A stretch of DNA of 64,000 nucleotides from a virus, in IMG/VR virus record IMGVR_UViG_3300043811_000021, positions 1 to 64,000 of that record. The stretch is one strand, 5' to 3'. The position numbers and the translations under genes are program-made. Under the pieces are notes generated by a model. The model was not told the DNA's origin and made no database searches. It saw only the letters and a list, made by a program, of their open reading frames with translations. This document shows positions 49,782 through 64,000 of the stretch, one piece after another (position 1 is the first letter of the stretch; each line of letters opens with the position of its first letter).

Positions 49782-49787
49782 TTAAAA

Positions 49788-49861: not shown

Positions 49862-49927
49862 ATTGAACATCCCAGAGTCACAGGTATTTCATCTGTGCGT
49901 TGTAACCTGCTTCCCCTACTTTCAATC

Positions 49928-50362
49928 TCACTCTGAAACAGAGAACGTTTTGTAATTAACCGCCATCCTCGCCTGTGAACGATAGTTCTTATTTTTTCTA
50001 TCCTCAATCCTAAGTGTTATAGCACTTTTCTTGGGCGGCATCTCTTCCCATGGTATGTAATAGCATTCCTTTGTTTCTGGACAATATACCGCTAATATAT
50101 CAAAATCACCATCAACATATTTCATTCTATGACTACCTTTGGAATTTGCCCAAGTTGATTCTATATCTATTTTCAAAGTACCGTCGCGCACCGAGCAATA
50201 TTTCACCTGAACAGTCCATAATTTATTTGAACGATATACTACAAGATCGAATGGAGCGTGTTCCGTTTGAGGTACACAGATTATGAAGCCTTGTTCGCAA
50301 AGATCAGCCTGAACTTTCAACACCGCTAGGTCACCCTTTTCTTTTGTGTGATGACTCTTCAT
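49928..50362 (-). CDS. Group I intron-associated-type PD-(D/E)XK endonuclease (I-Ssp6803I-like), free-standing
   Basis: TK.KGD.A...V...L...G..I..P..EH.PFDLV...VQVKY, D.D..AVYCP.T..CY.IP. Confidence 0.8.
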   Translation of the reverse strand: MKSHHTKEKGDLAVLKVQADLCEQGFIICVPQTEHAPFDLVVYRSNKLWTVQVKYCSVRDGTLKIDIESTWANSKGSHRMKYVDGDFDILAVYCPETKECYYIPWEEMPPKKSAITLRIEDRKNKNYRSQARMAVNYKTFSVSE

Positions 50363-50536
50363 TTATCTATTATAACACTAAAAGAAGCACTCCGAACTTG
50401 GTTGCTCAGGTTAACGCTTTTCCTGGCTGTTAGGCATTACGACCATTTGCAACTGGTAGCCTAAACACTCTCAACTCGCCTACCTGTATTTTCCTGTGGC
50501 CTACAGGTGTTTCGGTAGGTCTGTATCGAGCTAACT

Positions 50537-50614
50537 TGGTGCGCCGTGAGAGGCTCGAACTCCCGACCTAGTGCTTGTAAGGCACCCGCTCTGAACCAAC
50601 TGAGCTAACAGCGC
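50537..50614 (-). tRNA. tRNA-Val(TAC)
   Basis: Canonical cloverleaf, CCA. Confidence 0.92.
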
Positions 50615-50619
50615 AAAAA

Positions 50620-50695
50620 TGGACGGTCTATCGGAAGTTGAATCCGAATTTCTACCTTCGGAGGGTAGCGCCCTTATCCGTTGGACCATAGACCG
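50620..50695 (-). tRNA. tRNA-Arg(CCG)
   Basis: CTACC-CTCCGAA-GGTAG, CCA. Confidence 0.88.
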
Positions 50696-50701
50696 AAAAT
50701 A

Positions 50702-50780
50702 TGGTGCCGCTGGCCAGAATCGAACTGGCGTCAATCCGTCTACTCGAAGCCCGCTTAGGAGGCGGGTGAGGTACAGCGGC
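50702..50780 (-). tRNA. Non-canonical D-armless tRNA-like gene, anticodon CCT (Arg)
   Basis: Perfect acceptor, anticodon and T arms plus CCA; only 7 nt between acceptor and anticodon stems; 20 nt variable region. Confidence 0.7.
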
Positions 50781-50784
50781 AAGA

Positions 50785-50861
50785 TGGTGCTGACGGCTGG
50801 GATCGAACCAGCGGCATCTTGCTTAGAAGGCAAGCACTCTATCCGTCTGAGTTACGTCAGC
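50785..50861 (-). tRNA. tRNA-Arg(TCT)
   Basis: Canonical cloverleaf, CCA. Confidence 0.92.
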
Positions 50862-50865
50862 AATC

Positions 50866-50951
50866 TGGTGGAGCCGGTGGGACTTGAACCCACATTGGGT
50901 TTCCCCGCTCATTAAAAGTGAGGTCTCTGCATCCAATTCGAGTACGACTCC
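50866..50951 (-). tRNA. tRNA-Lys(TTT) with long variable arm
   Basis: CT-TTT-AA loop; variable hairpin GGG-GAAA-CCC; CCA. Confidence 0.8.
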
Positions 50952-50959
50952 ATTAAACT

Positions 50960-51036
50960 TGGTGAGCGCGGCTGGATTTGAACCAGCGTCAGCCTGCTTA
51001 AGAGGCAGGTATAATCAGCCGCTATACGACGCGCTC
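50960..51036 (-). tRNA. tRNA-Lys(CTT)
   Basis: CCTGC-CTCTTAA-GCAGG, CCA. Confidence 0.9.
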
Positions 51037-51037
51037 A

Positions 51038-51117
51038 TGGTAGACGTGACGGGTGTCGAACCCGCGTACTCCCGCTTATAAGGCAGGTGCTAAAACCAAT
51101 CCATCAGCTACACGTCT
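51038..51117 (-). tRNA. tRNA-Ile(TAT)
   Basis: CCTGC-CTTATAA-GCGGG, enlarged D-loop, CCA. Confidence 0.85.
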
Positions 51118-51126
51118 GTAAAACTA

Positions 51127-51202
51127 TGGTGCCAGTGGCTCAACTCGAATGAGCTACCTCCGACTTATGAGATCGGCGCATATCCACTTCTGCTTCACTG
51201 GC
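51127..51202 (-). tRNA. tRNA with CAT anticodon (elongator Met or Ile2)
   Basis: CCGAT-CTCATAA-GTCGG, G1:C72, CCA. Confidence 0.85.
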
Positions 51203-51207
51203 GAAAC

Positions 51208-51278
51208 TGGCAGGGGATAGGAGAATCGAACTCCTCACGGCGAGTTTTGGAGACTCGCCTAATCCCAGATCATCCCCT
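51208..51278 (-). tRNA. tRNA-Trp(CCA) with reduced D-arm
   Basis: CT-CCA-AA loop, G73, CCA; 71 nt. Confidence 0.82.
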
Positions 51279-51304
51279 GTATATCCTGCGAATTTTCAAT
51301 GATC

Positions 51305-51333
51305 AAAAAGAAGCCCTTCCACTGAGGAAGGGC
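51305..51333 (-). terminator. Attenuator terminator of tRNA block A
   Basis: GCCCTTCC-TCAGT-GGAAGGGC-TTCTTTTT. Confidence 0.85.
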
Positions 51334-51359
51334 CGGTGCTACAACACTTGCACAGACCC

Positions 51360-51431
51360 CTAAGACACGATCCCCCATCCCATCCGCTTGATGGTTATGG
51401 TTCTGACGTGTTTGCTAGTGGTCTGCATCAT
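51360..51431 (-). CDS. Leader peptide A (MMQTTSKHVRTITIKRMGWGIVS)
   Basis: AAAGGA RBS; codons match anticodons of the 12 downstream tRNAs; stop codon overlaps the antiterminator arm. Confidence 0.85.
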   Translation of the reverse strand: MMQTTSKHVRTITIKRMGWGIVS

Positions 51432-51526
51432 TTTTCCTTTGTCGAGGGGTTTCCCGCTCTAGCCCTATTATATCCCAGGCTGGGGTTTAGCTCTGCATAA
51501 TCCATCTACAGAGTACCGCAAGTCGA

Positions 51527-51856
51527 TTAGGAATGCAAGCCCAAAAATCGATAAGTCAACAATAAAGTTGTCAGATGGATCGCCTGATCGAACCCAATCA
51601 GCACAAAGAACCAGTGACGCTTCTCTTTCTTCCACAAATACGAAGTCCCCCTAGAGGTAATGTAATCGGTCGCGAAATGGAAGACAAACGTAATTATAGC
51701 GAACTTCCAGCCGAAAGCCAAGAATGGAAGAGAGTAAACAGAGACGTGAATTCCAAGCCATGTGTTTCTCGTTGACTTATTGAGAGCCATATTATCAGTT
51801 TGCAGAACAAAATCTGAGATGAAGTGAATCCAGATCAACGCTAAGATGTAGAGCAT
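51527..51856 (-). CDS. DUF3307 family membrane protein
   Basis: HF..DF.LQ...MA..K, H...Y, HF.TD, DQ..H. Confidence 0.85.
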
Positions 51857-52548
51857 GATTTCTCCTAGTGGTCACGAAATATACTGCAATCAGAATAATC
51901 CGTCCCCTCTATCTTGCCTTTCTCAAATTGATTTCTTCCGTACTTTCTACAAAAGTGAGCCAGCTCTATCCACTCTTTATCTTCAAGTGAAGTAGAAGGA
52001 AGAGAGATTTTGATATTTTTTAATAATTCCTTAAATTTTTCGTCTTCTTTTTCGAGAAGTTCTCTTTTATGCTGGCCAATCTGGTCGTACATGGTAACAT
52101 TTCCAATCCAATTCTGTGCCTCCTCTGCACTGAATCCAAAAGATTCAACACAAGTTCTTTCTGCCTCTCTTTTCCATTCGTACATAATAATCCTCAATCG
52201 TTTATCGTCTTCCGTTTTTCCAGTCTTTTAACCAATGAATCAACAACAGACTCTAGGCTGTGTCGATCTCCAAAGTGACCTACTCCATCTACTACATCAG
52301 AACATATCTCTATTACCTCTTGTAGTCGCAGGCTTTCCAAATCTTTTCCTAATCGATCCCCTTTCATTATTATCTCTAGTCTTTCAAGAACGGAAGTTAA
52401 AACTTCCTGTCCTTTTATTACGGCTGTTAGAAAGTCATCTGCGAACACCATGTTCTCAATAAGAATAGTTCCATCGGAAAACCATTCTGCATTGTTCTTA
52501 ATCTTTATTCTGTAGCATCTCATCGTTGTCTCCTATGCATATTATAGC

Positions 52549-52583
52549 AAAAAAATAGGGGAGAACAATATTCCGCTCTCCCC
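52549..52583 (-). terminator. Intrinsic terminator of the TROVE/VWA operon
   Basis: GGGGAGAGC...GTTCTCCCC followed by TATTTTTTT. Confidence 0.7.
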
Positions 52584-52603
52584 GCTCACAAAATGGTTAA
52601 AGG

Positions 52604-52906
52604 TTAAACCGCCAGTGCTTCCAAAGCAGCCAGTTCCTTTTCCAGTTCGCTCTTCTTCTGGGCAGGAGTCTTGAGAGAGTCAATCCGTGCTGTCAGTTCA
52701 CGCTTACGTGCAGCGATCTTGTCAGAGTTACGAGATGTGATCTCCCGGCGAATTGCTTTCAGTTGCGAATCAATGAACTCAGGCTCTTCGATCTGTAATG
52801 CCTCGTATTCGGCACGGAGAGACTTTCCGAAGGCCAGTCCAGCAACCAACTCGTCAATGTCAGTTACGCGGTCAGTGTTGAATGTCTTGAATGTTTGAAG
52901 ATTCAT
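52604..52906 (-). CDS. Small coiled-coil protein coupled to the TROVE/VWA gene
   Basis: ATGA overlap with upstream stop; helical heptad pattern. Confidence 0.75.
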   Translation of the reverse strand: MNLQTFKTFNTDRVTDIDELVAGLAFGKSLRAEYEALQIEEPEFIDSQLKAIRREITSRNSDKIAARKRELTARIDSLKTPAQKKSELEKELAALEALAV

Positions 52907-54411
52907 GCTGTTACCAGTTTACCTTTCTGTGCCCCCTTGAGCACTGAGTTGAGAGTTAAAAGCGGAGTGGCCAGGATTTCATCCACAAGTCCGTAGGTTT
53001 TCGTTCTCATAGTCTGCGCCAAATTTGGGATTGAGTAGTAATCCGTTCCGCCCCTTATGTCAAATGTCTGCATTTCCAGTCCAGCACTCTGCATCTTCGT
53101 TGTGAGGCTGTTAGGCTCACCTTCAACGTGGTACAGATATACTGGAACGTCACGGTCAGCGAACGCCACATATTTCTTGTAAACGTCCGTAAAGTACGGT
53201 GCGCTATGTTCCGCGCCGTCAGAAACAATTGCAATTCCATCAACCGAAATCTTCTCCTGAAGCATCCTGTTCAAACCGCAGCCGATGGATGTTCCACCGT
53301 TGGCTGTGATGTGCCTTGTTGCCTTTTGGATTGAGTCCAGAGGCAATCCTGTTACATCAATAGTCATCGGGTTAGTGTCAAAGAATACAAGGTAGACCTT
53401 TCCTCTGCAAATCTTAGCCAACGTAGCAGCAACGTGACGGGATGCCTCAATGGAACGAGACATACTACCCGACTTGTCTGCCAAAACGAGCCAATCGCCT
53501 TCTGGTCCTCCCATTGCCGCAATCTGCTTATCTTGTAGTCCCTGCAACTTCTCTTTCAGAACAGAGTCAGTCACAGACTCAGCAGCTTTGGTCGTCTTCA
53601 GCGTATTCTTCTTAGACGTTGCAGCCTTTGCTAATGCCTGATCAAATGCCCCGCGAAGTGCAGGATTCGTCTTCAGTCCCAACTTCTCCAACATCTTCAC
53701 GTTGGTAGTCAACTCAGTCGCAGACATTGCTCCAATCAACGCCAGAACCAAATCAGGTTCCTTCGCCTTTGCTCCCAATGCTCCCATCGCGATAAGGAAA
53801 GGAATCCGGTAACGCATGATCGATCCTGCCGCTTCCGTAGGAGTCATGTTCTTGAGGTTTGCTACTACCTCAAATACCGATCCCTTGGGAAGTGGTAATT
53901 TATTACCCTTTTCATCCTTACCGAAAAGAACCGCACGAACACGGTCTGCCTTTGTCTCAGGGCGAACATGGCCAAGAGCATACAACTCCCTCAGCGTCTT
54001 CCTATGCTGAATTGCCAGATGATCCCAGCCCTTATCCTGCTCCTTCTCATGCAGGTAATCGCCAATCAACCGGCGCAAAGGAAGCATCTTACCTGCTGGA
54101 CGAATCTCACGCGCAAAATGGAAAGCGCGAAGCAACTCACGCGGTCCAAGCAATGCTAAATGAGCATACGCATTATCCAATAACTCCGAGTCATTCTCAT
54201 ATGCCAAGCCGATAACTGGAAGAGCAACCTTGCTGTCCCTTATCTGCCCATGAGTTCTATCCCAGGAAATCAAATGCGCAAAGAATTCGCCTTCCTGTTT
54301 TACTGCCTGTTGTCCGATAGGAACGTATTCCTTCAGCGCACCGTGAGGACTTTTTGAAAGTTCACTCACAATTCTTTGTTTTGTCAATCCCTGTTCTGCC
54401 ATAGTATTCAT
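52903..54411 (-). CDS. Ro60/TROVE-like protein with C-terminal VWA (MIDAS) domain
   Basis: DKSGSMS (DxSxS), GGTSIG, IVSDG; basic helical N-terminal ~300 aa. VWA is certain; Ro60/TROVE is inferred from size, architecture and adjacent RNAs. Confidence 0.7.
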   Translation of the reverse strand: MNTMAEQGLTKQRIVSELSKSPHGALKEYVPIGQQAVKQEGEFFAHLISWDRTHGQIRDSKVALPVIGLAYENDSELLDNAYAHLALLGPRELLRAFHFAREIRPAGKMLPLRRLIGDYLHEKEQDKGWDHLAIQHRKTLRELYALGHVRPETKADRVRAVLFGKDEKGNKLPLPKGSVFEVVANLKNMTPTEAAGSIMRYRIPFLIAMGALGAKAKEPDLVLALIGAMSATELTTNVKMLEKLGLKTNPALRGAFDQALAKAATSKKNTLKTTKAAESVTDSVLKEKLQGLQDKQIAAMGGPEGDWLVLADKSGSMSRSIEASRHVAATLAKICRGKVYLVFFDTNPMTIDVTGLPLDSIQKATRHITANGGTSIGCGLNRMLQEKISVDGIAIVSDGAEHSAPYFTDVYKKYVAFADRDVPVYLYHVEGEPNSLTTKMQSAGLEMQTFDIRGGTDYYSIPNLAQTMRTKTYGLVDEILATPLLTLNSVLKGAQKGKLVTA

Positions 54412-54426
54412 CCTCCCGGAGATGTG

Positions 54427-54963
54427 TTATGGAAGTTTACGTTTTGCAAGGTAGTCAACAAAGAAGTTATAATCTAACTTCCGCTCCTTACACCAGTCAT
54501 GCGGGTCCATCGAACCTTTCCTCTTATTGCAATTTTTACAGGCAGAAAGGAAATTTGATGTGTCATTCGCCCCACCCGTTTCAAGTGGCTGGAAGTGATC
54601 GATTGACAGTGGAGATACACCCATTTTCACGCCGCAGTACATGCATTTGCATCCGTCAGCGACCCATACTTTCTGCTGCACCGCTCCAGAAATTTCATAG
54701 CGTACCTTGCGATGAAACGCTTTCGCTGGCATCACTAAAATCTCAGGATTATCTGTACGAGCTAAAAAGTCCGTCCACTCTTCGAGAGAAAGACGTTCAG
54801 TAGAGCATTCGCTAATATCTGGGCAATCTGGCAGCATGAGGATAGCCATTGCACCTTCTCCCCCCACTACCAACCCCTCAATTTTAAGGATATTACCCAA
54901 GTCGCCATAAACCGCTGGACGGTGGCGAAGCTCAAGCATATAAAAACGATCTCCGCTAGCCAT
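54427..54963 (-). CDS. HNH nuclease with N-terminal extension
   Basis: CMYCG...IDH..P...GG.N...N...AC..CN.RKG. Confidence 0.85.
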   Translation of the reverse strand: MASGDRFYMLELRHRPAVYGDLGNILKIEGLVVGGEGAMAILMLPDCPDISECSTERLSLEEWTDFLARTDNPEILVMPAKAFHRKVRYEISGAVQQKVWVADGCKCMYCGVKMGVSPLSIDHFQPLETGGANDTSNFLSACKNCNKRKGSMDPHDWCKERKLDYNFFVDYLAKRKLP

Positions 54964-54992
54964 ATTATCCTCTCCCAAGGCACAAAAAATAC

Positions 54993-55158
54993 TGGCTTCG
55001 TGTCGAGTGTGGTTTTGATGTTTTCAAGCAGCCTTGCGGCCCTCGAAACCCCCGCCTCATCATCCCTGCCTCTCGGCAGAATCCCTGACTCAGACGATCA
55101 GGCGGGGGGTTGCAGGTTGCCCTGCAAAACTATCATGTATCCACTCTCAGTGAAGCCA
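54993..55158 (-). ncRNA. Array RNA 1 (Y-RNA-like), multibranched insert
   Basis: TGGCTTC-ACT-GAGAGTGG-ATACAT ... CCACACTC-GACAC-GAAGCCA. Confidence 0.75.
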
Positions 55159-55178
55159 ATCTTGTACTACTTAACTTA

Positions 55179-55295
55179 TGGAGCCGGGTCCAAGAATTGA
55201 ACTTGGATTGTCGATTTATGGAATCGATGCATGTATCCAGAGTTAGTAAGGTTGCCCTTGTGTCAACTTTGGCATTACCGTTTTGCTAACCCGGC
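55179..55295 (-). ncRNA. Array RNA 2: tRNA(CAT)-like body with motif hairpin inserted after the D-arm
   Basis: GCCGGGT/ACCCGGC-T-CCA; TCGAT-TCCATAA-ATCGA; insert CCAAAGTT-GACAC-AAGG-GCAA-CCTT-ACT-AACTCTGG-ATACAT. Confidence 0.75.
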
Positions 55296-55308
55296 TCAAC
55301 TTGTACGG

Positions 55309-55773
55309 TCAACTATTCCTACCGCGAATCTTACGGCAATCAATACAGTAGTCCCTTAATCCGGTTTCCTTATTGCCGTCCTTGTGAAATCTTCCTTTTG
55401 GTATCCAATCCTGATGACGACTACACCAAGCCATTCCGTCAGGAGCTATTCCTATAGTTCGTATGGAATTGTACGTTGCCTTACCTAAATGACCGGCGGC
55501 AATGTTGCATCTTTTATGGGAAAATGCTATGTTCTCCAAATCCCAAAAGAGGTCGGCGCTTATTCCTTCCCAAGGTTTCTTGTGTTCTATAGAACACTCA
55601 GAAGATTTTTCAATCTTCTTCTTACAGCGATAACAAGTATCTGCTCCGCATCTTTTTACAAGATCAAACAAGATAAGTCTATAAAGTCTGCCATTCGCAG
55701 TACCAAAAGGCATATTTAGCGTCTCATCTTTTTTCCATGTAGAACTCTTCTTTTTTATTTCCATCATCTCCAT
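55309..55773 (-). CDS. HNH endonuclease-like protein inserted in the RNA array
   Basis: CYRC, SIEH.KPW, N...SH..CN, C-terminal zinc finger; start moved downstream of array RNA 3. Confidence 0.75.
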   Translation of the reverse strand: MEMMEIKKKSSTWKKDETLNMPFGTANGRLYRLILFDLVKRCGADTCYRCKKKIEKSSECSIEHKKPWEGISADLFWDLENIAFSHKRCNIAAGHLGKATYNSIRTIGIAPDGMAWCSRHQDWIPKGRFHKDGNKETGLRDYCIDCRKIRGRNS

Positions 55774-55781
55774 ATAATACA

Positions 55782-55880
55782 TGGAGGGAATAAATTTCAA
55801 CCCAATGCTGCTCTTTATCCATGTACCCAGGCAAAGTAACGTTTCCGTTGTGTCTTGTCCGGTTCCGTTTTTTGCCCCCC
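55782..55880 (-). ncRNA. Array RNA 3: degenerate tRNA-like body with motif hairpin
   Basis: CCGG-ACAA-GACAC-AACG-GAAA-CGTT-ACT-TTGCCTGG-GTACAT; G-rich 5' end pairs with TTCCCT-CCA. Confidence 0.65.
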
Positions 55881-55887
55881 ACAACTT

Positions 55888-56017
55888 ATTTGGTTAGTGT
55901 CTGTCAGCGAGTGTTGCTGGTTGAAAAAGTAGGGATCGAACCTACGACCTATTCATTTGAAGTGAATTGCTCTACCAGTGAGCTATTTTTCCGTGTACGC
56001 TGCCATGTTAACCAAAT
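55888..56017 (-). ncRNA. Array RNA 4: motif stem enclosing a complete tRNA(TCA)
   Basis: ATTTGGTTA-ACA-TGGCAGCG-TACAC-[tRNA]-...CGCTGACA-GACAC-TAACCAAAT. Confidence 0.75.
55918..55992 (-). tRNA. tRNA with TCA anticodon (would read UGA), nested in array RNA 4
   Basis: GCTC/GAGC D-arm, ATTCA-CTTCAAA-TGAAT, GTAGG-TTCGATC-CCTAC, A-U-rich acceptor with G1-A72 mismatch, ACCA. Confidence 0.75.
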
Positions 56018-56022
56018 CTTAA

Positions 56023-56084
56023 AGGGTTGGTATCGGACTGCGCTGTTCATGTTTACAAAGCATGTAAGCAGTCCCGTCAACCCT
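56023..56084 (-). ncRNA. Array RNA 5 (minimal unit)
   Basis: AGGGTTG-ACG-GGACTGC-TTACAT ... GCAGTCC-GATAC-CAACCCT. Confidence 0.75.
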
Positions 56085-56091
56085 ATCTTAA

Positions 56092-56207
56092 TCCGCTTGT
56101 GTCTTTTGGCTAACCCTTGCGGGCACAAGGCCGTTTTCGAGGCGGCTTCTTTTTCTCCAAATGAAAATGCTGGACTACCAGCACATGTACGCCAAAACGT
56201 AAGCGGA
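56092..56207 (-). ncRNA. Array RNA 6
   Basis: TCCGCTT-ACG-TTTTGGC-GTACAT ... GCCAAAA-GACAC-AAGCGGA. Confidence 0.75.
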
Positions 56208-56380
56208 ATCTTTCATCCCTAACATCAGGAAAACTCAAACTCAGTGATTAGGTAGCCTCACATCAGGTCGCTCACTTCCAGAATCCGGCACAGTTACAAA
56301 CGGGACGACACCCTCACCTAGCTACCATCTTTCCATGCCCTCATTGGTAAAGCTACCTAATCTCTGCATCAACAAAACCA

Positions 56381-56409
56381 ACTCTACTACAATGTCCTGC
56401 GCATTGCAA
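56381..56409 (-). promoter_or_regulatory. Putative promoter of the RNA array / TROVE operon
   Basis: TTGCAA-17 bp-TAGAGT with GCGCAGGACAT box in the spacer, same geometry as 34197-34225. Confidence 0.55.
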
Positions 56410-56455
56410 GCACTTTCTAAAACTATTTTCTACTATTTTTATGCTTGCTAAATTA

Positions 56456-56534
56456 TGGTGGGGCTGGCAGGACTTGAACCTGCTGCCTCCGGTTTCGTAG
56501 ACCGGCGCTCTGAATCCAGATGAGCTACAACCCC
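56456..56534 (-). tRNA. tRNA-Arg(ACG)
   Basis: CCGGT-CTACGAA-ACCGG, CCA. Confidence 0.92.
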
Positions 56535-56546
56535 ACTTACAAAAAA

Positions 56547-56621
56547 TGGTCGGGGAGGGGAATCCTGACATCCCAACCTTTCCGCCCCAAACGGAAAGCT
56601 CTTCCTTTGAGCTACTCCCCG
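56547..56621 (-). tRNA. tRNA-Pro(TGG)
   Basis: C1:G72, TT-TGG-GG loop, CCA; atypical T-loop. Confidence 0.82.
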
Positions 56622-56843
56622 ATAAACTTGGTTACTTCTCGTCCAATAAAACATAGTACTGATCAGGACCATGCTCTGCTGCTGAATTCAGAACATCCAC
56701 CAATTCATCCGCAGTAATGGCATAGTATTTTCTATTTCCATTCACCGGAAAAAACGGGAATAGCGCAGCCATTCGTCTTTCTGATTCAAGATACAGCTTT
56801 TCTGTTTGTACGAAAACCTGTGACATATTACCTCCGATAACAC

Positions 56844-57143
56844 TCACAAATCTCTAACAACAAACTTCCACGGATCGCTCATTACCCAGCCAACAGCTTT
56901 TCCGTTCTCTAACTCATACCAACGATCAACTGGAGATTCAGGTCCAGGCCACGGCTTAGGCCAAGTAGGTCCATCCTCGCCAAAATTAGTATGCGTCCTT
57001 AGCACAGGAATTTTAAGTAAAGAATCTACTTCGTCATTCCTGCCCATTCCATTTTCCGTGTACCCGCATGGCAGAGCGTCAGATAAACTATCAGACCCAT
57101 CATATCCAAAAATCTTTATGAGTAGTTCTTCTTCCTCTGTCAT
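56844..57143 (-). CDS. Hypothetical protein
   Basis: GGAG RBS; W.ELENGKAVGW. Confidence 0.55.
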   Translation of the reverse strand: MTEEEELLIKIFGYDGSDSLSDALPCGYTENGMGRNDEVDSLLKIPVLRTHTNFGEDGPTWPKPWPGPESPVDRWYELENGKAVGWVMSDPWKFVVRDL

Positions 57144-57156
57144 TGCTTCTCCGATA

Positions 57157-57234
57157 TGGTGGACTCGGCCAGATTTGAACTGGCAACACGATGATTTTCA
57201 GTCACCTGCTCTACGCGATTGGAGCTACGAGTCC
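57157..57234 (-). tRNA. tRNA-Phe(GAA)
   Basis: GGTGA-CTGAAAA-TCATC, CCA. Confidence 0.9.
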
Positions 57235-57861
57235 GATTAACGATCTCCAGTCGTTTCTTTCTTTAGATGTCTTCCGACGATGACAATTTGCACATCGCAC
57301 AACACATTTTTCAATCTCTTCCAAAATCCTTTTCATCGAGCATGTTGAGCGTAGGAGCTTAGATATATTGCACTTTTTAACCCCTTTAATATGGTCAAAA
57401 TCCAAGACCATAATGTCCGATTCTCCGCAATCCACACAATGATGTTCCGCCAGATAAGAAACGATGAAAGCCCTTTGTTCCTGTCGTTTAATATCCCTGT
57501 TACGATAAAGGCGCTTCCGTTCTCTTTCCGAGTTATCCCTATAGTGCTGTGCCTTATAAGAACTTTCGCAAATCATGCACCATGCTTGTAGCCCATCTCT
57601 CCGTGCAGCATTTTCTCTAAAATCGCAGCGTGTTTTAACCGTGGTGCATTTGCTGCAATATTTCTCCTTTTCAGGATCGAACTTTGGAAGAAGACTTCTA
57701 CCGTCTTCCGCGATGCACTTCTTGGAGCAAAACCTACGTTTAGCATATTGAGTTTTCCAAAACTCTTTGCCACACCAAGCACATGAATAAGCAAATAGAC
57801 GCCTATTCTTGCCATGAAAAAATTCGATCCTACAATCAACCATGCAATAAGTGTAATACAA
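57211..57861 (-). CDS. HNH homing-endonuclease-like protein
   Basis: Zinc fingers, CVDCG...LDFDH, EI.KC.V.CANCHR. Confidence 0.8.
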   Translation of the reverse strand: MYYTYCMVDCRIEFFHGKNRRLFAYSCAWCGKEFWKTQYAKRRFCSKKCIAEDGRSLLPKFDPEKEKYCSKCTTVKTRCDFRENAARRDGLQAWCMICESSYKAQHYRDNSERERKRLYRNRDIKRQEQRAFIVSYLAEHHCVDCGESDIMVLDFDHIKGVKKCNISKLLRSTCSMKRILEEIEKCVVRCANCHRRKTSKERNDWRSLIGLVAPIA

Positions 57862-57884
57862 ATGACTGAAAACATCAAAACTTT

Positions 57885-57960
57885 TGGTGGACCGGGAGGG
57901 GCTTGAGTCCTCGCGCAGACGCTTGCAGGGCGTCCCATCTCCATCTGAAAGTACCGGCCC
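57885..57960 (-). tRNA. tRNA-Ala(TGC)
   Basis: G3:U70, CC-TGC-AA loop (C33), CCA; atypical D and T loops. Confidence 0.8.
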
Positions 57961-58005
57961 ATTTATTCAACTTCAAACTGTGCCGGGGAATTTCACCCCG
58001 GCGAT

Positions 58006-58093
58006 TGGGGAGATCGGCGGAACTCGAATCCGCGTTGAGGAATTACCCTCCCGGAGCCACAATCCGGTGCCTATCCATCTCGGCCACGACCTC
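58006..58093 (-). tRNA. tRNA-His(GTG) with long variable arm
   Basis: TT-GTG-GC loop, C73, variable hairpin GAGG-GTAATT-CCTC; no encoded G-1. Confidence 0.82.
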
Positions 58094-58096
58094 ACT

Positions 58097-58170
58097 TGGA
58101 GCACTCAGTAGGAATCAAACCCACGTTTTGGCCATACAAAGGGCACGTTCTGTCACTGAACTATGAGTGC
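58097..58170 (-). tRNA. tRNA-Thr(TGT)
   Basis: GCACTCA/TGAGTGC, TT-TGT-AT loop, CCA. Confidence 0.82.
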
Positions 58171-58174
58171 AAAC

Positions 58175-58720
58175 TTACACAAACTGCAAACTCTTCTCAC
58201 CTTCGGAATCAGAGTACAAATACTTACTCCACGCTTCGACTTCCAATCCCATCGAACGAAGGATAATCCTTCCTGTGTGAACCGTGGCTGGGAGAGGCTT
58301 GCGAAGTAGTTTCATTCCAGCCTCTTCCGGCGTACGATCTGCCTTGCGGTGGTTATCTTTGCGGCAGCAAGTTACAAGGTTACTCCAGTCGTTCTTTCCT
58401 CCACGCGACTTAGGAATTACGTGGTCAAGTGTCAAAGAATCACCCTTGAATTCCTCTCCACAATAGCAGCACTTATGCCCATCGCGCAAGTAAATATTTT
58501 TCCTACTCACAACCTGCATCCGAACGGGAATATGTCTATACGTTCTCAACTTGATTACCGATGGTAAAGTTATGCCAGGATAAACTTCAATATCCGTTGG
58601 CATCTCTACCATAGCAGCACCCTTACAAAGTAACGTCAAAGCTCTACGGGCAGCAACTATTCTGATCGGCTCATACGATGCGTTTAATACCAACACCGGC
58701 TTTTTCATCAGGTTGCTCAT
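58175..58720 (-). CDS. HNH endonuclease
   Basis: VLVLNASYEP, PSVI.L, RD...CCYCG, TLDHVIP.SRGG...W.NLV. Confidence 0.9.
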   Translation of the reverse strand: MSNLMKKPVLVLNASYEPIRIVAARRALTLLCKGAAMVEMPTDIEVYPGITLPSVIKLRTYRHIPVRMQVVSRKNIYLRDGHKCCYCGEEFKGDSLTLDHVIPKSRGGKNDWSNLVTCCRKDNHRKADRTPEEAGMKLLRKPLPATVHTGRIILRSMGLEVEAWSKYLYSDSEGEKSLQFV

Positions 58721-58764
58721 ATTCCCTCAATCAATCTCCGCTAGTCTCTCTGAATAATCTTCTG

Positions 58765-58840
58765 TGGAGCCGGTGGAGGCAATCGAAGCCCCGACCTCAT
58801 CTGTACGAAAGATGCGCTCTTCCACCTGAGCTACACCGGC
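58765..58840 (-). tRNA. tRNA-Thr(CGT)
   Basis: CATCT-TTCGTAC-AGATG, CCA. Confidence 0.9.
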
Positions 58841-58935
58841 TTGTCTACGTCTTGCCACTACTATACTATGCACTTTCGTGAAGTCGTGGCTCACTAACAT
58901 CATTCTGTGGGTCATCGGCTTTCCTTTCTTTCAAT

Positions 58936-59010
58936 TGGAGCGGAGTACGGGGTATGATCCCGTGCGCAAAGTGTGGCACACTTCGATGCTTCCAATTACA
59001 TCAACTCCGC
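58936..59010 (-). tRNA. tRNA-Gly(GCC)
   Basis: GCG 5' end, GT-GCC-AC loop, U73, CCA; T-loop ATCATAC. Confidence 0.82.
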
Positions 59011-59018
59011 AAATCTTT

Positions 59019-59093
59019 TGGTTCCAGCGCGAGGTTACGATCCCCGATCCTCGCCTTCAAAGGGCGGTATCCTACCAGTTAGATGACGCTGGA
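59019..59093 (-). tRNA. tRNA-Gln(TTG)
   Basis: U1:A72, CT-TTG-AA loop, CCA; T-loop ATCGTAA. Confidence 0.85.
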
Positions 59094-59102
59094 TCAAAAC
59101 CT

Positions 59103-59177
59103 TGGTTGCCCATCGAGGCGACGATCCCCGAACTACTGGTCCAGAGCCAGCCGTGATACCAATTTCACCAATGGGCA
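59103..59177 (-). tRNA. tRNA-Gln(CTG)
   Basis: U1:A72, CT-CTG-GA loop, CCA; T-loop ATCGTCG. Confidence 0.85.
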
Positions 59178-59293
59178 ACAACTAAACAGTGAGGGCGCGA
59201 CTCTTTCGCTCCGAACGTCTTACTCAAACCCCAAAGGGGTCACTGCGTTACTCGACAGGACTTACTAGACGGCCTGTGTCCCTCTCCAAACTT

Positions 59294-59384
59294 TGGCTCA
59301 CGGAGCAGGACTCGAACCTGCGATGGGAGATGAACTCCTCTGTATTAACAGTACAGCGCCTGCTACCAACTCGGCTATCCGTGA
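59294..59384 (-). tRNA. tRNA-Asn(GTT) with long variable arm
   Basis: U1:A72, G73, CT-GTT-AA loop, variable hairpin GGAG-TTCAT-CTCC. Confidence 0.85.
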
Positions 59385-59401
59385 ACATCCCTAAACAGTT
59401 C

Positions 59402-59429
59402 GAGACCCAAACCTTTCGATCTGGGCCTC
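59402..59429 (-). terminator. Attenuator hairpin of tRNA block B (weak U-tract)
   Basis: GAGGCCCAGATC-GAAA-GGTTTGGGTCTC then GAACTGTTT. Confidence 0.6.
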
Positions 59430-59476
59430 TGCGTTTTACCATTTTTAGTTAGGTAAAAATCTCTCTGAGACCCCGA

Positions 59477-59542
59477 TTATGACCCCCCACCCTGCGGCGT
59501 TTGTGTCGCGGTTGGATTGGCGTTATGGAATCGTGTCTGCAT
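59477..59542 (-). CDS. Leader peptide B (MQTRFHNANPTATQTPQGGGS), probably leaderless
   Basis: ATG 6 nt after the -10 box; codons match the 11 downstream tRNAs. Confidence 0.85.
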   Translation of the reverse strand: MQTRFHNANPTATQTPQGGGS

Positions 59543-59548
59543 GAATTC

Positions 59549-59577
59549 AATGTACCTCAGTCCTAAAAACTTGTCAA
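59549..59577 (-). promoter_or_regulatory. Promoter of tRNA block B
   Basis: TTGACA-17 bp-TACATT. Confidence 0.8.
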
Positions 59578-59585
59578 GAACTTTT

Positions 59586-59861
59586 TTAAGGTAATCCCGC
59601 CAACTGCGTTTCTTGCCTCTGGGCCGGTGGCCAGTTGTCTATTTTTCGCATTAGAGTCCGTATCGCTGCTTCCCGCTTCACGTCCACAATTCCTCTCCCC
59701 TGATCTTTCAGAGAATCAATCAATAAAGAAACCAGCTTTGCCTTTGCCTCAGCTAACGGATACTCTCGTTTAGAAACGTGAATCACTACTTCATGCTTTT
59801 GTGTGTCCTGCGCGAAACAGGTAATCGAGAAAAGAAGAATTGCGATAAGGAATGGTTTCAT
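59586..59861 (-). CDS. Hypothetical secreted protein
   Basis: N-terminal signal peptide. Confidence 0.5.
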   Translation of the reverse strand: MKPFLIAILLFSITCFAQDTQKHEVVIHVSKREYPLAEAKAKLVSLLIDSLKDQGRGIVDVKREAAIRTLMRKIDNWPPAQRQETQLAGLP

Positions 59862-60025
59862 GCGTCATCATGGCATAGTTCATATAAAGACAATATAAGA
59901 AAAGAGAAGGGACATGCTCTTCAGCTTGCCCCTTCGAGCCTCAGCCTACGCAGCTGAGGGAATACGATTTTGGTTAAATCAATTGTAACGCAGTTCCGCA
60001 ATCTGTGCAGAATTTATTTGCAGCC

Positions 60026-60481
60026 TTATTCACTTTTCCGCAAGTCACACACTCCGGTTTCCTGTCCACCGTTCCCGCCGCCCAGCTTGCTCCAATTGCA
60101 ATCCTTGAGGGCTAGGCGAATACGATGCAGCATGAACCATGCCGTCTTCTGTGTGACCTCAATCGCCCGCATGATCTCGTAGGAACTAACGCCGTTCTTG
60201 CAATTCACTACCAGCCAAACGGCGGTCAGCCATTTATCGAGCGGCACAGGAGAATCCTCGAACACACTCTGAGTCTTCACACTGAATTGCTTGTGGCACT
60301 CTTTCGCCATGCACTTCCATATCCGGCGAGAGGACAGATAGGAAACTCTCTTGCTCTCACAGTGCGGGCAGGTGACACCGTTAGGCCAGCGCATCGACGC
60401 AACGAAATCGACACACACGTTCGGGTCTTGGAAATACCGCGTTGCGGCAAGTAAGCTCTTGGGTAGTCTTTCTTTACTCAT
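60026..60481 (-). pseudogene. Truncated IS1595-family transposase
   Basis: RWPNG..CPHC zinc ribbon, FSVK...FEDS..PL.KW, KTAWFMLHRIR; the catalytic domain is missing. Confidence 0.8.
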
Positions 60482-60726
60482 TCTTCACCTCACAGAATCA
60501 AAGAAAACGTTGCGGCTGTCTCCGTAGAGGTGTATTATTTCTACAGAGAGAAGCCCTTATGACTCCCCGCGCAACCATGCGCAGGGAGCCTGAAAGGCCA
60601 TAGACTCCGGTGTTAGAGCACCATTGCCTGTGGGTACTACCGTGTGAAAGTACATTTTGCTTCTCCTCGGTCCTTAAATTAGCTTGCTAGGCTGTGGACC
60701 GAATCCGTTGTACCGAAGCCCCGGCC

Positions 60727-61158
60727 TTAAGCTGGGGTTTCGTTTTTATCCTCCCTTTTATTGGCAATGTAGCGATGCGGATCACGGCCCCGGCCTTGGT
60801 GCGTCCGCGTGATCCGTCCAGCCTGCATGAGAGCGATGAGCGACCACCCTACTGCGTTCATAGCGGCATCAGGTTTTTCTGGGAGACGAACCAGTGCACC
60901 GAGTTGAATTGCCGAAAGGACACTCCGCGAGGTCCACTCGGTTTCCGGCGAAGAATTCACCAATTGCAGAACGACAGACTCCATTTCACTCAGTTCGCCC
61001 CGGACAGTTTTTGCTTGGACAGTGACTAGATTTCCATCTTTGCCAACAAAGACAAAATCGTATCCGGGATAACGCTGCTTGAGGCGTGTCAGATCATCGC
61101 TATCCCTGCGGATTTCCCGCTCAGCGGCTTCGATTGGATTTATGGGAGCTGCGTTCAT
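60727..61158 (-). CDS. Hypothetical protein, possible IS passenger
   Basis: AAGGA RBS; winged-helix-like C-terminus. Confidence 0.5.
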   Translation of the reverse strand: MNAAPINPIEAAEREIRRDSDDLTRLKQRYPGYDFVFVGKDGNLVTVQAKTVRGELSEMESVVLQLVNSSPETEWTSRSVLSAIQLGALVRLPEKPDAAMNAVGWSLIALMQAGRITRTHQGRGRDPHRYIANKREDKNETPA

Positions 61159-61346
61159 TCCTTAATCGTAAACATGGATTCATGGAATGTCAAGCCTTAC
61201 GGTGGAAAGTTTTCATGGAAATCATGGATTATCCTGCGCTTTCCTACGCAACGGCATAGTCCTAAATCACGCCGCTACGAGGGTTGTATCCGCTCGGCTG
61301 TAAACCGAAGTCAACAGATTTTATTTGTATGGTGCGTCAACGATAT

Positions 61347-62009
61347 TTATGCCGATTTAACCTCTTTCAGATGAGCAACCTCTATGTATCGCGAATATCT
61401 ACATACCGCACAGAATTTCGGTCGTCCGCTTTTATCATATATCGTTTCAGCATCTCTACGAATAGATGAACGCGCTGACTGCCAATTAGACCGCCTCGCG
61501 AATAGTTCATCCTTCGTTAATTGTCCGATACTGATTGGTCGCTTCACTCTCTCTGCGCACGATGGGCAGTATTTATGAGATTTATAATCTTCCGTCCTGT
61601 AAAATACGTCCCCACATATTTTGCAGTGGCATCCAGTTCTTAGTTTTTTGCCGACAAATACAGAAGAGCACTTTCGGTCACAGAAGTTTCTTTTATTTAT
61701 CTGAGAGATTTTCTCCCTCGGCTTGAGAATTAGAATCCTTCCACACTCCTTGCATATTTTTGGGTTAGAGTAATAGAGATCAATTGCTTCTTGTCTAGCT
61801 AAAATATTTCCATTTGGTATGTAGTTTGGGTGCTCTTTTTTATATCTCTCTTTATCTCTTTCAGTCAGATATTCCCTGTGATCTTCTCGATACTTCTTCT
61901 GGTATGCGCGGCGGCATTCCATGCATCTTTCTGTCGATATTGGGATTTCATGAAGGCGCTTTTGGCAAAACTTCGTTAATCCTGAAAACATTTCTTGACC
62001 ATGCTTCAT
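61347..62009 (-). pseudogene. C-terminally truncated HNH-like protein
   Basis: Several zinc fingers, then CAVC.Y...IEVAH and a stop before the HNH motif is complete. Confidence 0.6.
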
Positions 62010-62145
62010 ATTCTCTCCTCAGATTGGCGTGGCAGTAGCCTACGCTGATTAAATTCAGTGTTTTCATACCTATTCCTCTTTTTTTTGGTTTTCCTGCTGC
62101 TTAACGTGTTGCAGGAGCCACGGAATAATTTAGTGTAGCACGGAA

Positions 62146-62490
62146 CTACGGAAACCGAGCAATACCAGGAACTTGATCGAATCCAGTCACTCCTTCTCGC
62201 TTCAAAAGCCTCCAACCTCCATCACCTATCCGCATCACTTCTCCACTGTCTATTTCCTCAATCGGATTCGTAACCTTTCTCCAATTCTCGCAAGTGCATT
62301 TGAATTGCATTGAAACAGGAAGAGGACATGGCTCTCCTAGATGCGATTCTTCATTATCACCACAACATCTACGCATATTACATGGAGGGATACATCCACC
62401 AACTAAAACAGCGCCCTGTTTGACAAGACGCTGCGCTTCGGCTCCAGAACGGGCCATTCCAGTTTCCGTTAGTGCCTTAGATAATTTCAT
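62146..62490 (-). CDS. Stand-alone S4 RNA-binding domain protein with Cys-rich insert
   Basis: L.ETG.A.S..EA.RLV.QGAV.V.G motif resembling the TyrRS C-terminal S4 domain; later RKV...E.......RIG. Confidence 0.7.
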   Translation of the reverse strand: MKLSKALTETGMARSGAEAQRLVKQGAVLVGGCIPPCNMRRCCGDNEESHLGEPCPLPVSMQFKCTCENWRKVTNPIEEIDSGEVMRIGDGGWRLLKREGVTGFDQVPGIARFP

Positions 62491-62507
62491 TTCCTCTCCC
62501 TAAAGTA

Positions 62508-62594
62508 TGGTGCAGGCGGTGTGAATCGAACACACTATGCCCCGGAGGACGCTTGATTTACAGTCAAGGAGGCTACCATTAGCCCAACGCCTGC
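62508..62594 (-). tRNA. tRNA-Tyr(GTA)
   Basis: CTTGA-CTGTAAA-TCAAG, long variable arm, CCA. Confidence 0.9.
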
Positions 62595-62600
62595 ACATCA

Positions 62601-62687
62601 TGGAGGAGAGGACGCGAGTCGAACGCGCAGTACCTTTCAGTACGTCTGATTTCAAATCAGGTCGGCTTGCCCATGCCGAACCTCTCC
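62601..62687 (-). tRNA. tRNA-Ser(TGA)
   Basis: TT-TGA-AA loop, long variable arm, CCA. Confidence 0.88.
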
Positions 62688-62692
62688 AAATT

Positions 62693-62780
62693 TGGCGGTA
62701 GCAGGATGAGTTGAACATCCAATAGCTTTCACTATGTCTCGCTTCGAACGAGGTGGGCTTGCCACATGCCCAATGCTACC
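62693..62780 (-). tRNA. tRNA-Ser(CGA)
   Basis: TT-CGA-AG loop, long variable arm, G73, CCA. Confidence 0.88.
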
Positions 62781-62784
62781 AAAA

Positions 62785-62870
62785 TGGCGGAAAGTTAGGT
62801 ACTCGAAACCTACACCTCGCGGTGCTCACCGATTTCCAATCGGGTCCCATCCCTGACGGGTTAACTTTCC
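62785..62870 (-). tRNA. tRNA-Ser(GGA)
   Basis: TT-GGA-AA loop, long variable arm, G73, CCA. Confidence 0.88.
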
Positions 62871-62874
62871 AAAC

Positions 62875-62960
62875 TGGCGGAGCGTACTGAAGTCGAATCA
62901 GTTCAGGCTTTCACCTGTACGGTTTAGCAAACCGCTGCATTTCCGTCCTGCCCACGCTCC
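62875..62960 (-). tRNA. tRNA-Ser(GCT)
   Basis: TT-GCT-AA loop, long variable arm, G73, CCA. Confidence 0.88.
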
Positions 62961-62961
62961 G

Positions 62962-63039
62962 TGGTCCTCGCACCCGGACTCGAACCGGGAATATGACACG
63001 CTTTTTGAGAGCGCCGCTCTTCCATTTCGCCATGCGAGG
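62962..63039 (-). tRNA. tRNA-Leu(CAA), short variable region
   Basis: GCGCT-CTCAAAA-AGCGT, A73, CCA. Confidence 0.85.
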
Positions 63040-63052
63040 TACTTCTAAACTA

Positions 63053-63135
63053 TGGTGCCCGCAGAGGGACTCGAACCCCCACCCCGAAAGACCTGTTCCT
63101 AAGACAGGCGCGGCTGCCAATTACGCCATGCGGGC
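63053..63135 (-). tRNA. tRNA-Leu(TAG)
   Basis: CCTGT-CTTAGGA-ACAGG, CCA. Confidence 0.9.
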
Positions 63136-63147
63136 ACATCTTAAACT

Positions 63148-63222
63148 TGGAGTACCGGGAGAGAGTCGAACTCTCCAAAACTTGCTTTGCAGGCAAGACC
63201 TTAGCCGATTAGGTTCCGGTAC
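63148..63222 (-). tRNA. tRNA-Cys(GCA)
   Basis: CTTGC-CTGCAAA-GCAAG, U73, CCA. Confidence 0.9.
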
Positions 63223-63223
63223 A

Positions 63224-63306
63224 TGGTGCGGGATAAGGGACTCGAACCCTTACGATTTCTCCACGGATTTTAAGTCCGTTATGGCTCCCAGTTTCATCAA
63301 TCCCGC
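63224..63306 (-). tRNA. tRNA-Leu(TAA)
   Basis: ACGGA-CTTAAAA-TCCGT, CCA. Confidence 0.9.
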
Positions 63307-63337
63307 AAAACTAAAAAGCCCCCATTTCTGGAGGCTT
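63307..63337 (-). terminator. Attenuator terminator of tRNA block C
   Basis: AAGCCTCCA-GAAA-TGGGGGCTT-TTTAGTTTT. Confidence 0.85.
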
Positions 63338-63362
63338 CTGGTAAAAATCCTGAACTTGGACT

Positions 63363-63434
63363 CTATCCCATAGCCTCTCTCGCACTCAGACTGAGTGAAT
63401 ACGATGATAAAGATAGGGAGCACAAGTTGTTCAT
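63363..63434 (-). CDS. Leader peptide C (MNNLCSLSLSSYSLSLSAREAMG)
   Basis: 14 consecutive Leu/Cys/Ser/Tyr codons matching the 9 downstream tRNAs. Confidence 0.88.
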   Translation of the reverse strand: MNNLCSLSLSSYSLSLSAREAMG

Positions 63435-63440
63435 GTATTG

Positions 63441-63469
63441 ATCCTCTCATAGATTCAGGATGTTGTCAA
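63441..63469 (-). promoter_or_regulatory. Promoter of tRNA block C
   Basis: TTGACA-17 bp-(TGn)GAGGAT, ATG 6 nt downstream as in block B; GAGG could instead act as an RBS. Confidence 0.6.
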
Positions 63470-63695
63470 GACTTCTTTTTTGTTATTTTCGTTATCCGCA
63501 CATTCTTTAGTTTTGAACGGACAATTCTCGCCAGACGTGCGATCTCCTTGAGTTTTTCTCCCTTCCATATTTCTTCGTCCGCCAAAAGAACTCTTCCGTG
63601 CTTATCTGTAGATAATTTTAATATCGCAGATGTGATGTCAGGTATTGAGTCTTTCTTTGTGTACTTCTTCTTCAGGATTATCGCCATATATCTCC

Positions 63696-63989
63696 TCAAT
63701 CCGGGTACTTAACTTTGTCTGGATTTTCCTTTTGCCAGTCCGAAAATTGCGCAGCAAAATGAGCCACTTCATCTGCCTGTTCATCTAAACTCGATGCAAG
63801 ATTTATGGCCTCTTCCTCAGTCAGGTTCTTGTCGCGTTCTACCCATTCTGACAATTGCTGCAATAGAACAGCGTATTGTCTCACAGCCTGTACTGAAAGG
63901 CGATCCTGAGCGCGAATGAAAAAGTACGGCTCCCCTTTATGTAGCCTTAGTAGTGGGTTTTCGTTTGCATATTTACCTGTCTTTGGCAT
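63696..63989 (-). CDS. Conserved phage hypothetical protein
   Basis: EP.F..RAQD......V..YA motif; AGGAG RBS. Confidence 0.6.
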   Translation of the reverse strand: MPKTGKYANENPLLRLHKGEPYFFIRAQDRLSVQAVRQYAVLLQQLSEWVERDKNLTEEEAINLASSLDEQADEVAHFAAQFSDWQKENPDKVKYPD

Positions 63990-64000
63990 TTACTCTCCTG

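Follow-up and report, generated by a model that had tools for sequence, protein, structure and literature searches.

Leader peptides that gauge more than one amino acid are known from enterobacteria: the thr leader senses Thr and Ile, and the ilvGMEDA leader senses Ile, Leu and Val. In attenuators of the trp type, stalling of the ribosome frees the antiterminator, and a ribosome at the stop codon blocks it. The pheST attenuator of E. coli has a Phe-rich leader before the phenylalanyl-tRNA synthetase genes, and the T-box leader makes direct contact with uncharged tRNA by way of a specifier codon, with no ribosome needed. Here we describe an element on the minus strand of a DNA stretch of 64,000 nt (the window), which is the first 64 kb of one 134,145-bp contig, a virus record with 46% G+C (IMG/VR IMGVR_UViG_3300043811_000021) whose source is a large soil phage. 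The element, at 63307-63469, combines a small open reading frame (ORF) rich in Leu, Ser, Cys and Tyr codons with a terminator hairpin, and lies directly before nine tRNA genes for the same four amino acids. It is real and selected, and it probably controls transcription into a phage tRNA operon as a ribosome-dependent attenuator of the leader-peptide type. From the modelled folds, the most likely function is that of a stall-sensing attenuator which places the Leu, Ser, Cys and Tyr tRNAs under feedback control.

By analogy, the hardware of this element is closest to that of the multivalent thr and ilv leaders. As in those leaders, a short ORF with clustered codons for several amino acids is combined with protector, antiterminator and terminator segments, the stop codon is placed so that a terminating ribosome would mask region 2, and an intrinsic terminator precedes the first gene. 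The thr and ilv leaders regulate biosynthetic enzymes and repeat one or two codons, whereas the phage leader stands before tRNA genes and displays 12 codons that map to nine isoacceptors. The likeness to pheST is leader-peptide attenuation of a component of the translation apparatus, although the component there is the synthetase for one amino acid and here nine tRNAs for four amino acids (for the pheL-pheA leader, see the relevant part of PMC3082878). Like a T-box, the leader RNA would read a specific tRNA state and toggle between terminator and antiterminator, but the reader here would be the translating ribosome, and neither Rfam search of the region returned a T-box riboswitch. No Rfam leader family matched 49000-64000 at E up to 1: the matches outside the tRNA clan were four chance-level hits to Plastid-ycf2 on the strand opposite the tRNA genes and one ctRNA_p42d match over the terminator (63305-63339), at 22.9 bits against a gathering score of 50. 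Compared with known leader-peptide attenuators, what sets it apart is the tRNA-gene cargo, the many-codon isoacceptor sampler and the phage setting; in full-text literature searches, covering main texts only, no paper turned up on control of tRNA genes by a leader peptide or attenuator.

The leader ORF (63363-63434, minus strand, ATG at 63434) has 23 codons and a TAG stop at 63365-63363. It begins ATG AAC AAC, continues with 14 sampler codons and ends GCG AGA GAG GCT ATG GGA before the stop. The sampler, codons 4-17 (63384-63425, minus strand), reads TTG TGC TCC CTA TCT TTA TCA TCG TAT TCA CTC AGT CTG AGT, as a preliminary description of this DNA had listed, and encodes Leu, Ser, Cys and Tyr only. 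That description also counted correctly: 12 distinct codons are used, five of them for Ser, five for Leu and one each for Cys and Tyr. Runs of these four amino acids are scarce: all six frames of the 134,145-bp genome together hold 13 runs of at least 8 codons and only one of at least 10, the 14-codon sampler itself. In 20 shuffles of the genome in 500-nt blocks, runs of at least 10 codons occurred at a mean of 0.55 and runs of at least 14 did not occur. The 14-codon run is thus more than chance.

The genes behind the leader encode, in this order, Leu-UAA, Cys-GCA, Leu-UAG, Leu-CAA, Ser-GCU, Ser-GGA, Ser-CGA, Ser-UGA and Tyr-GUA (62508-63306, minus strand, ARAGORN). Each of the nine has a readable codon in the sampler, in line with the earlier claim of full coverage: seven by exact Watson-Crick pairing, and Ser-GCU and Tyr-GUA by G:U wobble with AGT and TAT. 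Of the sampler codons, CTC has no exact reader in the tRNA block and CTG can be read by Leu-UAG through wobble.

The putative terminator that separates the leader from these genes (63307-63339, minus strand; -16.3 kcal/mol) has an 11-bp stem at 63339-63314 with 5 G-C pairs, a GAAA loop and a U-tract that runs to 63307. As had been proposed, the U-tract abuts tRNA-Leu(UAA), which starts at 63306, so the tRNAs should be obtainable only by read-through. Between hairpin and tRNA-Leu there is no space for a separate tRNA promoter, and the spacing of the eight tRNA genes behind tRNA-Leu(UAA) leaves no room for terminators.

Two alternative structures precede the terminator. In the predicted protector, or 1:2 hairpin (63353-63428, minus strand; -25.6 kcal/mol), the distal leader, with GAGGCT in it, serves as the partner strand of the sampler codons, around a core 9-bp hairpin at 63404-63380. 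The predicted antiterminator, or 2:3 structure (63331-63377, minus strand; -20.6 kcal/mol), pairs GAGGCU (63377-72) with AGCCUC (63336-31) and UGG (63370-68) with CCA (63341-39), and encloses an inner 7-bp hairpin. The preliminary description had noticed that GAGGCT (63377-63372) is complementary to the terminator 5' arm AGCCTC (63336-63331). That pairing is real but was given incompletely, since the UGG:CCA pairs and the inner hairpin extend it to the energy above, and the attenuator anatomy it proposed, which is otherwise supported, lacked the protector over the sampler codons.

We folded transcripts of growing length and imitated the ribosome by a 28-nt mask around the A site. For transcripts of 84 to 104 nt the protector has the lowest energy throughout, and it is present in the full-length fold too; the antiterminator is the minimum-energy fold at 108-120 nt. 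Protector, antiterminator and terminator are mutually exclusive and arise in order of synthesis. When the masked transcript ends just before the terminator 3' arm, an A site on any of codons 6-16 gives the antiterminator, and an A site on codon 17 through the stop codon does not. As modelled, the fold geometry is that of a trp-type attenuator, and three of the features that define such an element are found together: 14 clustered Leu, Ser, Cys and Tyr codons match the supply of an operon of nine Leu, Ser, Cys and Tyr tRNAs, a predicted intrinsic terminator lies between leader ORF and first tRNA gene, and, in silico, exclusive folds place the codons in the protector 5' strand and the stop codon near region 2. 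For a control, the bases between start codon and terminator were shuffled 400 times and each shuffle was scored jointly on three criteria: pairing of the terminator arm under stalling, prior protection of the partner bases, and their coverage when a ribosome occupies the stop codon. The observed values on all three were reached by only 2 of the 400 shuffles.

These folds suggest the following sequence of events. With transcription starting at the leader ATG or a little ahead of it, a ribosome would read the 23-codon leader as RNA polymerase moves on. If all Leu, Ser, Cys and Tyr codons are decoded fast, the ribosome would reach the TAG and cover GAGGCU; the terminator hairpin would then form and transcription would end at the U-tract, one base before tRNA-Leu. 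If the tRNA for any sampler codon is scarce or uncharged, the ribosome would stall at about codons 6-16 and cover the protector 5' strand, leaving GAGGCU free to pair with the terminator 5' arm and allowing read-through into the nine tRNAs and probably the S4-domain gene behind them. Where no ribosome loads, the protector would form first and termination would follow. The circuit would amount to negative-feedback control of supply, because its products are the tRNAs that read the sampler. Such feedback could help when host tRNAs are depleted in infection or cut by host nucleases.

Candidate start signals lie just upstream of the leader ATG. A TTGACA (63464-63469, minus strand) may serve as the -35 element; the stop codon of an upstream 77-aa ORF overlaps it, and the same hexamer precedes a second leader of this genome (leader B, below) and the leader of the related locus L025. 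A weak extended -10 candidate, TG-n-GAGGAT (63441-63449, minus strand), lies 17 nt past TTGACA, and its distance to the ATG is exactly 6 nt. A Shine-Dalgarno (SD)-like GAGAGGA (63448-63442), 7 nt upstream of the ATG, overlaps this candidate. Judged by this sequence, the leader mRNA may be either leaderless, beginning at or near the A of the ATG and 7 nt after the weak -10, or part of a transcript from upstream with SD-led translation. In the present leader (leader C, 63441-63446), in leader B (59545-59550) and in the leader of locus L026 (2002-2007), exactly 6 nt separate the ATG from the end of a -10-like hexamer, a spacing that would make all three mRNAs leaderless.

There is no close relative among GenBank phages, where a tblastn search with a neighbouring 502-aa protein gave one 30% match; blastn of 62100-64000 found only short tRNA-Leu matches, in 14 records, and an IMG/VR search by the tRNA-Ser pattern gave 0 matches. 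The S4-domain protein encoded behind the tRNAs has 18 homologues in a large protein set, and their alignment led to 33 metagenome loci. The tRNA scan took in 28 of these (L002-L029) and left out L030-L034, which have 26-residue matches only. Among the 28 loci, only L004 and L025 have the same block, running from Leu-Cys-Leu through Ser to Tyr, directly before the S4 gene; in L026 and L027 the tRNAs are Trp-Ser-Ser-Cys.

L025, whose S4 protein is 59% identical to that of the window over residues 1-85, repeats the whole arrangement. TTGACA, 17 nt and AATGAT stand upstream of a 20-codon leader in which codons 4-15 are 12 consecutive Leu, Ser, Cys and Tyr codons, 11 of them distinct and in an order that differs from that of the window. 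A 9-bp terminator follows, with a U-tract that abuts tRNA-Leu(UAA). The block behind it has eleven Leu, Cys, Ser and Tyr tRNAs, and the two that the window lacks, Leu-GAG and Leu-CAG, have exact codons in the L025 leader (CTC and CTG). In the 34 fetched loci (183,159 nt), this leader is the only run of at least 10 Leu, Ser, Cys or Tyr codons. Its folds and mask results repeat the switch logic of the window, and 1 of 400 shuffles equals it. Around a shared GAGG:CCUC core, two outer pairs of antiterminator and terminator have changed on both sides, from C-G and U-A in the window to G-C and C-G in L025 (CU:AG against GC:GC), with the terminator 3' arm changed to match. These changes were read by eye because a MAFFT alignment placed the two attenuators out of structural register, and, coming from two sequences, they are anecdotal.

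A peat metagenome contig from run X4 matches 63364-63395 and diverges from the window on both sides of it. The ten in-frame codons before codon 14 (30 letters, reverse-complemented by hand) encode L C L S L S S Y C S, and when the part shared with the window is added, each of the nine anticodons has a readable codon; on the other side the stop is kept, as TAA. Small matches in runs X2 and X3 were tRNA-like fragments and short pieces. The contigs compared are of DNA, and a look-up of RNA runs containing this stretch listed none. Sampler make-up is thus kept, with codon order changed, in two diverged relatives. The anatomy, the modelled folds and this conservation support the attenuator reading put forward in the preliminary description.

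Upstream of each of the two other tRNA blocks in the window stand a small ORF and a hairpin. When residues after the start codon are counted that belong to the amino acids of a given tRNA block, leader A scores 18/22 with its own block and 8/22 and 2/22 with the other two, leader B 14/20 against 8/20 and 1/20, and leader C 14/22 against 3/22 and 3/22; each of the three leaders fits its own block best. Leaders A and B fold as a long leader hairpin, then a terminator-like stem.

We also asked how varied the sampler codons are, keeping the amino-acid order fixed and drawing synonymous codons from phage usage (106 ORFs). At least 12 distinct codons arise with P=0.046, and coverage of all nine tRNAs has P=0.054 when U34 reads A only. 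For L025, judged by the codon usage of the window, the two values are P=0.059 and 0.023. Together with the coverage in the X4 contig, these tests lend moderate support to the view that codon variety itself may have been selected.

Several results weigh against a stall-sensing attenuator that reads isoacceptors. At equilibrium, the full transcript with protector and terminator (-41.9 kcal/mol) is favoured over the antiterminator form (-40.2 kcal/mol) by a gap of only 1.7 kcal/mol, and the full-length minimum-energy fold keeps the terminator under masks on codons 3-13. Since equilibrium favours the terminator even under most masks, the modelled switch would depend on kinetic folding order. With a ribosome at the stop codon the terminator 5' arm still has 5 weak local pairs; under the assumed footprint, a stall at codon 16 leaves just 5 of the 6 GAGGCU:AGCCUC pairs and a stall at codon 17 would give no induction. 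A consensus promoter scan did not list the candidate promoter before leader C, whose second hexamer matches at 3/6 positions, and did list a 9/12 promoter-like site within the leader ORF (63433-63404). Among the same-block relatives, L004, L025 and the partly seen X4 contig, one of the three has no leader: L004 (600-704, plus strand) has the same Leu-Cys-Leu-Ser-Tyr block with no Leu/Ser/Cys/Tyr leader, retaining just a remnant of the terminator 3' arm, with a TTGACG close to the first tRNA. The attenuator element can therefore be lost, and the sequence of L004 may record such a natural loss. In a matched-leader screen of 39 tRNA cluster starts in nine loci, 1 of the 39 scored high (L025, 0.63). 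A 9-residue ORF in L014 that scored 0.50 in this screen was taken as chance. Finally, under ordinary wobble, coverage of all nine tRNAs in the codon test is not unusual (P=0.26).

The rival that survives best accepts the same attenuator hardware and changes the signal: the leader would report amino-acid supply, tRNA charging or general translation stress, not the size of the tRNA pool, and any slowdown in the leader would open the operon. A stalled ribosome does not distinguish a missing from an uncharged tRNA, classical attenuators sense charging, and the wobble result takes away from the uniqueness of the coverage. Extra tRNA, however, would not relieve amino-acid starvation, and a general stress sensor needs no match to its own block, yet all three leaders of the window match their own block and not the others. 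Codon variety is above expectation in two leaders, and three homologous leaders cover every isoacceptor despite changed order. We therefore regard this rival as unlikely. The preliminary description had taken the variety of synonymous codons as a sign that individual isoacceptors are sensed; that idea is only moderately supported, for it gains from codon variety and from coverage under strict pairing, and loses from coverage under wobble.

Less probable still is an action of the translated ORF other than attenuation, for example by shielding of the nascent RNA from Rho, by coupling to the polymerase, or by stalling that causes termination. Untranslated tRNA transcripts can be Rho targets, and the closeness of the two end states in folding energy would suit such an action. 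A Rho shield, however, has no need for codons matched to the downstream tRNAs, and in three independent leaders the antiterminator forms under masks that imitate a stall but not under one placed at the stop codon.

We find it very improbable that the element has no regulatory role, with the hairpin serving as the terminator of the 77-aa gene or as a processing structure and the small ORF a chance or low-complexity artefact. In favour of this view, the ORF is short and without relatives in databases, the genome does contain Ser/Leu-rich stretches (the 13 runs of at least 8), and L004 manages without a leader. Yet the only run of at least 10 in the genome sits exactly before the matching tRNAs, and in the 183 kb of loci the same goes for the run in L025; the hairpin stands too close to the tRNAs to leave space for a separate promoter, and the two other blocks have matched leaders of their own. 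It is hardly credible that the actual product is the 23-aa peptide, acting in trans as the relevant part of PMC7298713 describes for some attenuator leader peptides, since the relatives keep the amino-acid set and not the order, the opposite of selection on a folded or binding peptide.

If the stall-sensing attenuator is right, the phage gauges decoding capacity and supplies tRNAs on demand. The purpose of phage tRNA genes has been debated for decades, and proposed roles include codon supplementation, replacement of degraded host tRNAs and escape from anticodon nucleases (relevant parts of PMC10264068 and PMC11464382); a circuit of this kind would favour the replacement or counter-defence views. 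That phage tRNAs answer tRNA-cleaving defences makes such cleavage a plausible trigger, and the passages on this point in PMC10264068 and PMC13056530 do not address regulation; in the available text of PMC10264068, "promoter" and "transcription" occur 0 times. The trn array of Anabaena sp. PCC 7120, a set of extra, horizontally spread tRNAs that is silent and is induced when translation is impaired (PMC8421152, PMC10272220, in the parts concerned), is the nearest published case found and resembles what is proposed for the phage block in being a silent extra tRNA set with such an induction (as described in part of PMC8421152). The described control differs: in the array, the ribbon-helix-helix repressor TrcR acts on direct repeats in the promoter, over the -10 and start site (PMC8421152, PMC10272220, same parts), whereas the layout here is ORF plus terminator, and the response there is to general translational stress, not to specific codons (PMC8421152, same part). 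The strings attenuat-, leader, terminator and uORF do not occur in the available text of PMC8421152.

With the phage attenuator, textbook attenuation would reach beyond amino-acid metabolism to the tRNA pool itself, and a natural codon-resolving sensor would be at hand; at about 165 nt, the element is a simple, portable test object. More tentatively, and as something possible rather than probable, large phages may share a general, undescribed class of isoacceptor-checklist leaders that induce spare tRNA genes by attenuation when an isoacceptor fails, for example through cleavage by host anticodon nucleases. Block C would then be the spare set of long-arm tRNAs (Leu, Ser, Tyr) plus Cys, with one homeostat per block, and the tRNA genes would be an inducible counter-defence, not a constitutive codon supplement.

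A possible independent analogue, judged by its sequence, is found in a 99.6-kb phage (L026 = L027 = L042). An ORF of 25 codons, of which seven are for Ser, one is for Cys and two neighbouring ones are for Trp, has an antiterminator strand directly ahead of its stop. A terminator with a perfect 13-bp stem adjoins tRNA-Trp, and tRNAs for Ser, Ser and Cys lie farther downstream, among ORFs. The folds follow the same switch logic as in the window, and 2 of 400 shuffles equal them. Against Trp alone this leader scores 0.08, and its match was noticed post hoc, after the Ser, Ser and Cys tRNAs had been added; no tRNA in view matches its Leu and Phe codons. Windows as rich in Ser, Trp and Cys occur once in L007 and four times in the genome described here, so the L026 leader is weaker support. 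None of 11 further tRNA starts in this phage has a matched leader.

The S4-domain gene behind the nine tRNAs (62146-62490, minus strand; Pfam S4, E=1.1e-5), which encodes a protein with four Cys, starts 17 nt past tRNA-Tyr and is probably in the same transcript as the tRNAs. A terminator-like hairpin of 12 pairs with a T-rich tail lies inside its 5' part (62408-62434, minus strand). The protein is small and conserved, its four Cys invariant, across at least 28 metagenome loci (L002-L029), and its gene stands beside tRNA genes in 11 of 28: L004, L005, L006, L009, L011, L014, L015 and L025-L027, plus L042. That it binds RNA or tRNA is our guess. A full-length relative (45% identity) is encoded in L035, a 17-kb contig binned as Acidobacteriaceae with no tRNAs near; this is a faint hint at Acidobacteriaceae as the host group, or the contig is a mis-binned phage contig. 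In L001 (5354-5488, plus strand), which has no tRNA-His or his genes in view, a small ORF resembles a his leader: a signal-peptide-like start is followed by V5, H, G, a nine-His run, R and H, then by a hairpin.

All tRNA genes of the window lie on the minus strand, at 49.6-63.3 kb. ARAGORN found 26, and a permissive Rfam search with folding added Trp-CCA, Met-CAU and Pro-UGG. Within the nine-tRNA block, six genes match the Rfam tRNA family (RF00005) at gathering score; in the permissive search a seventh (Ser-UGA) and the Tyr gene match RF01852, with scores under the gathering score of that family. Ser-GCU, Ser-GGA and Ser-CGA are absent from both Rfam result tables, at gathering score and permissive. 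Two suppressor-type tRNAs are encoded at 50866-50951 and 55922-55992 (both minus strand), although the standard code suits the genome well: one combines a long variable arm with the anticodon UUA (reading UAA), and the other, labelled SeC by ARAGORN, is an ordinary cloverleaf with the anticodon UCA (reading UGA). Use of TAG as a sense codon was rejected: 106 ORFs of at least 120 aa are found under table 11, and the suppressor-type tRNAs read UAA or UGA, not UAG. The stop codon of leader B is TAA, so the tRNA with anticodon UUA could in principle read through it. Between tRNA blocks B and C, an ORF at 60026-60481 (minus strand) encodes an IS1595-type transposase zinc-ribbon domain (Pfam E=5.9e-12).

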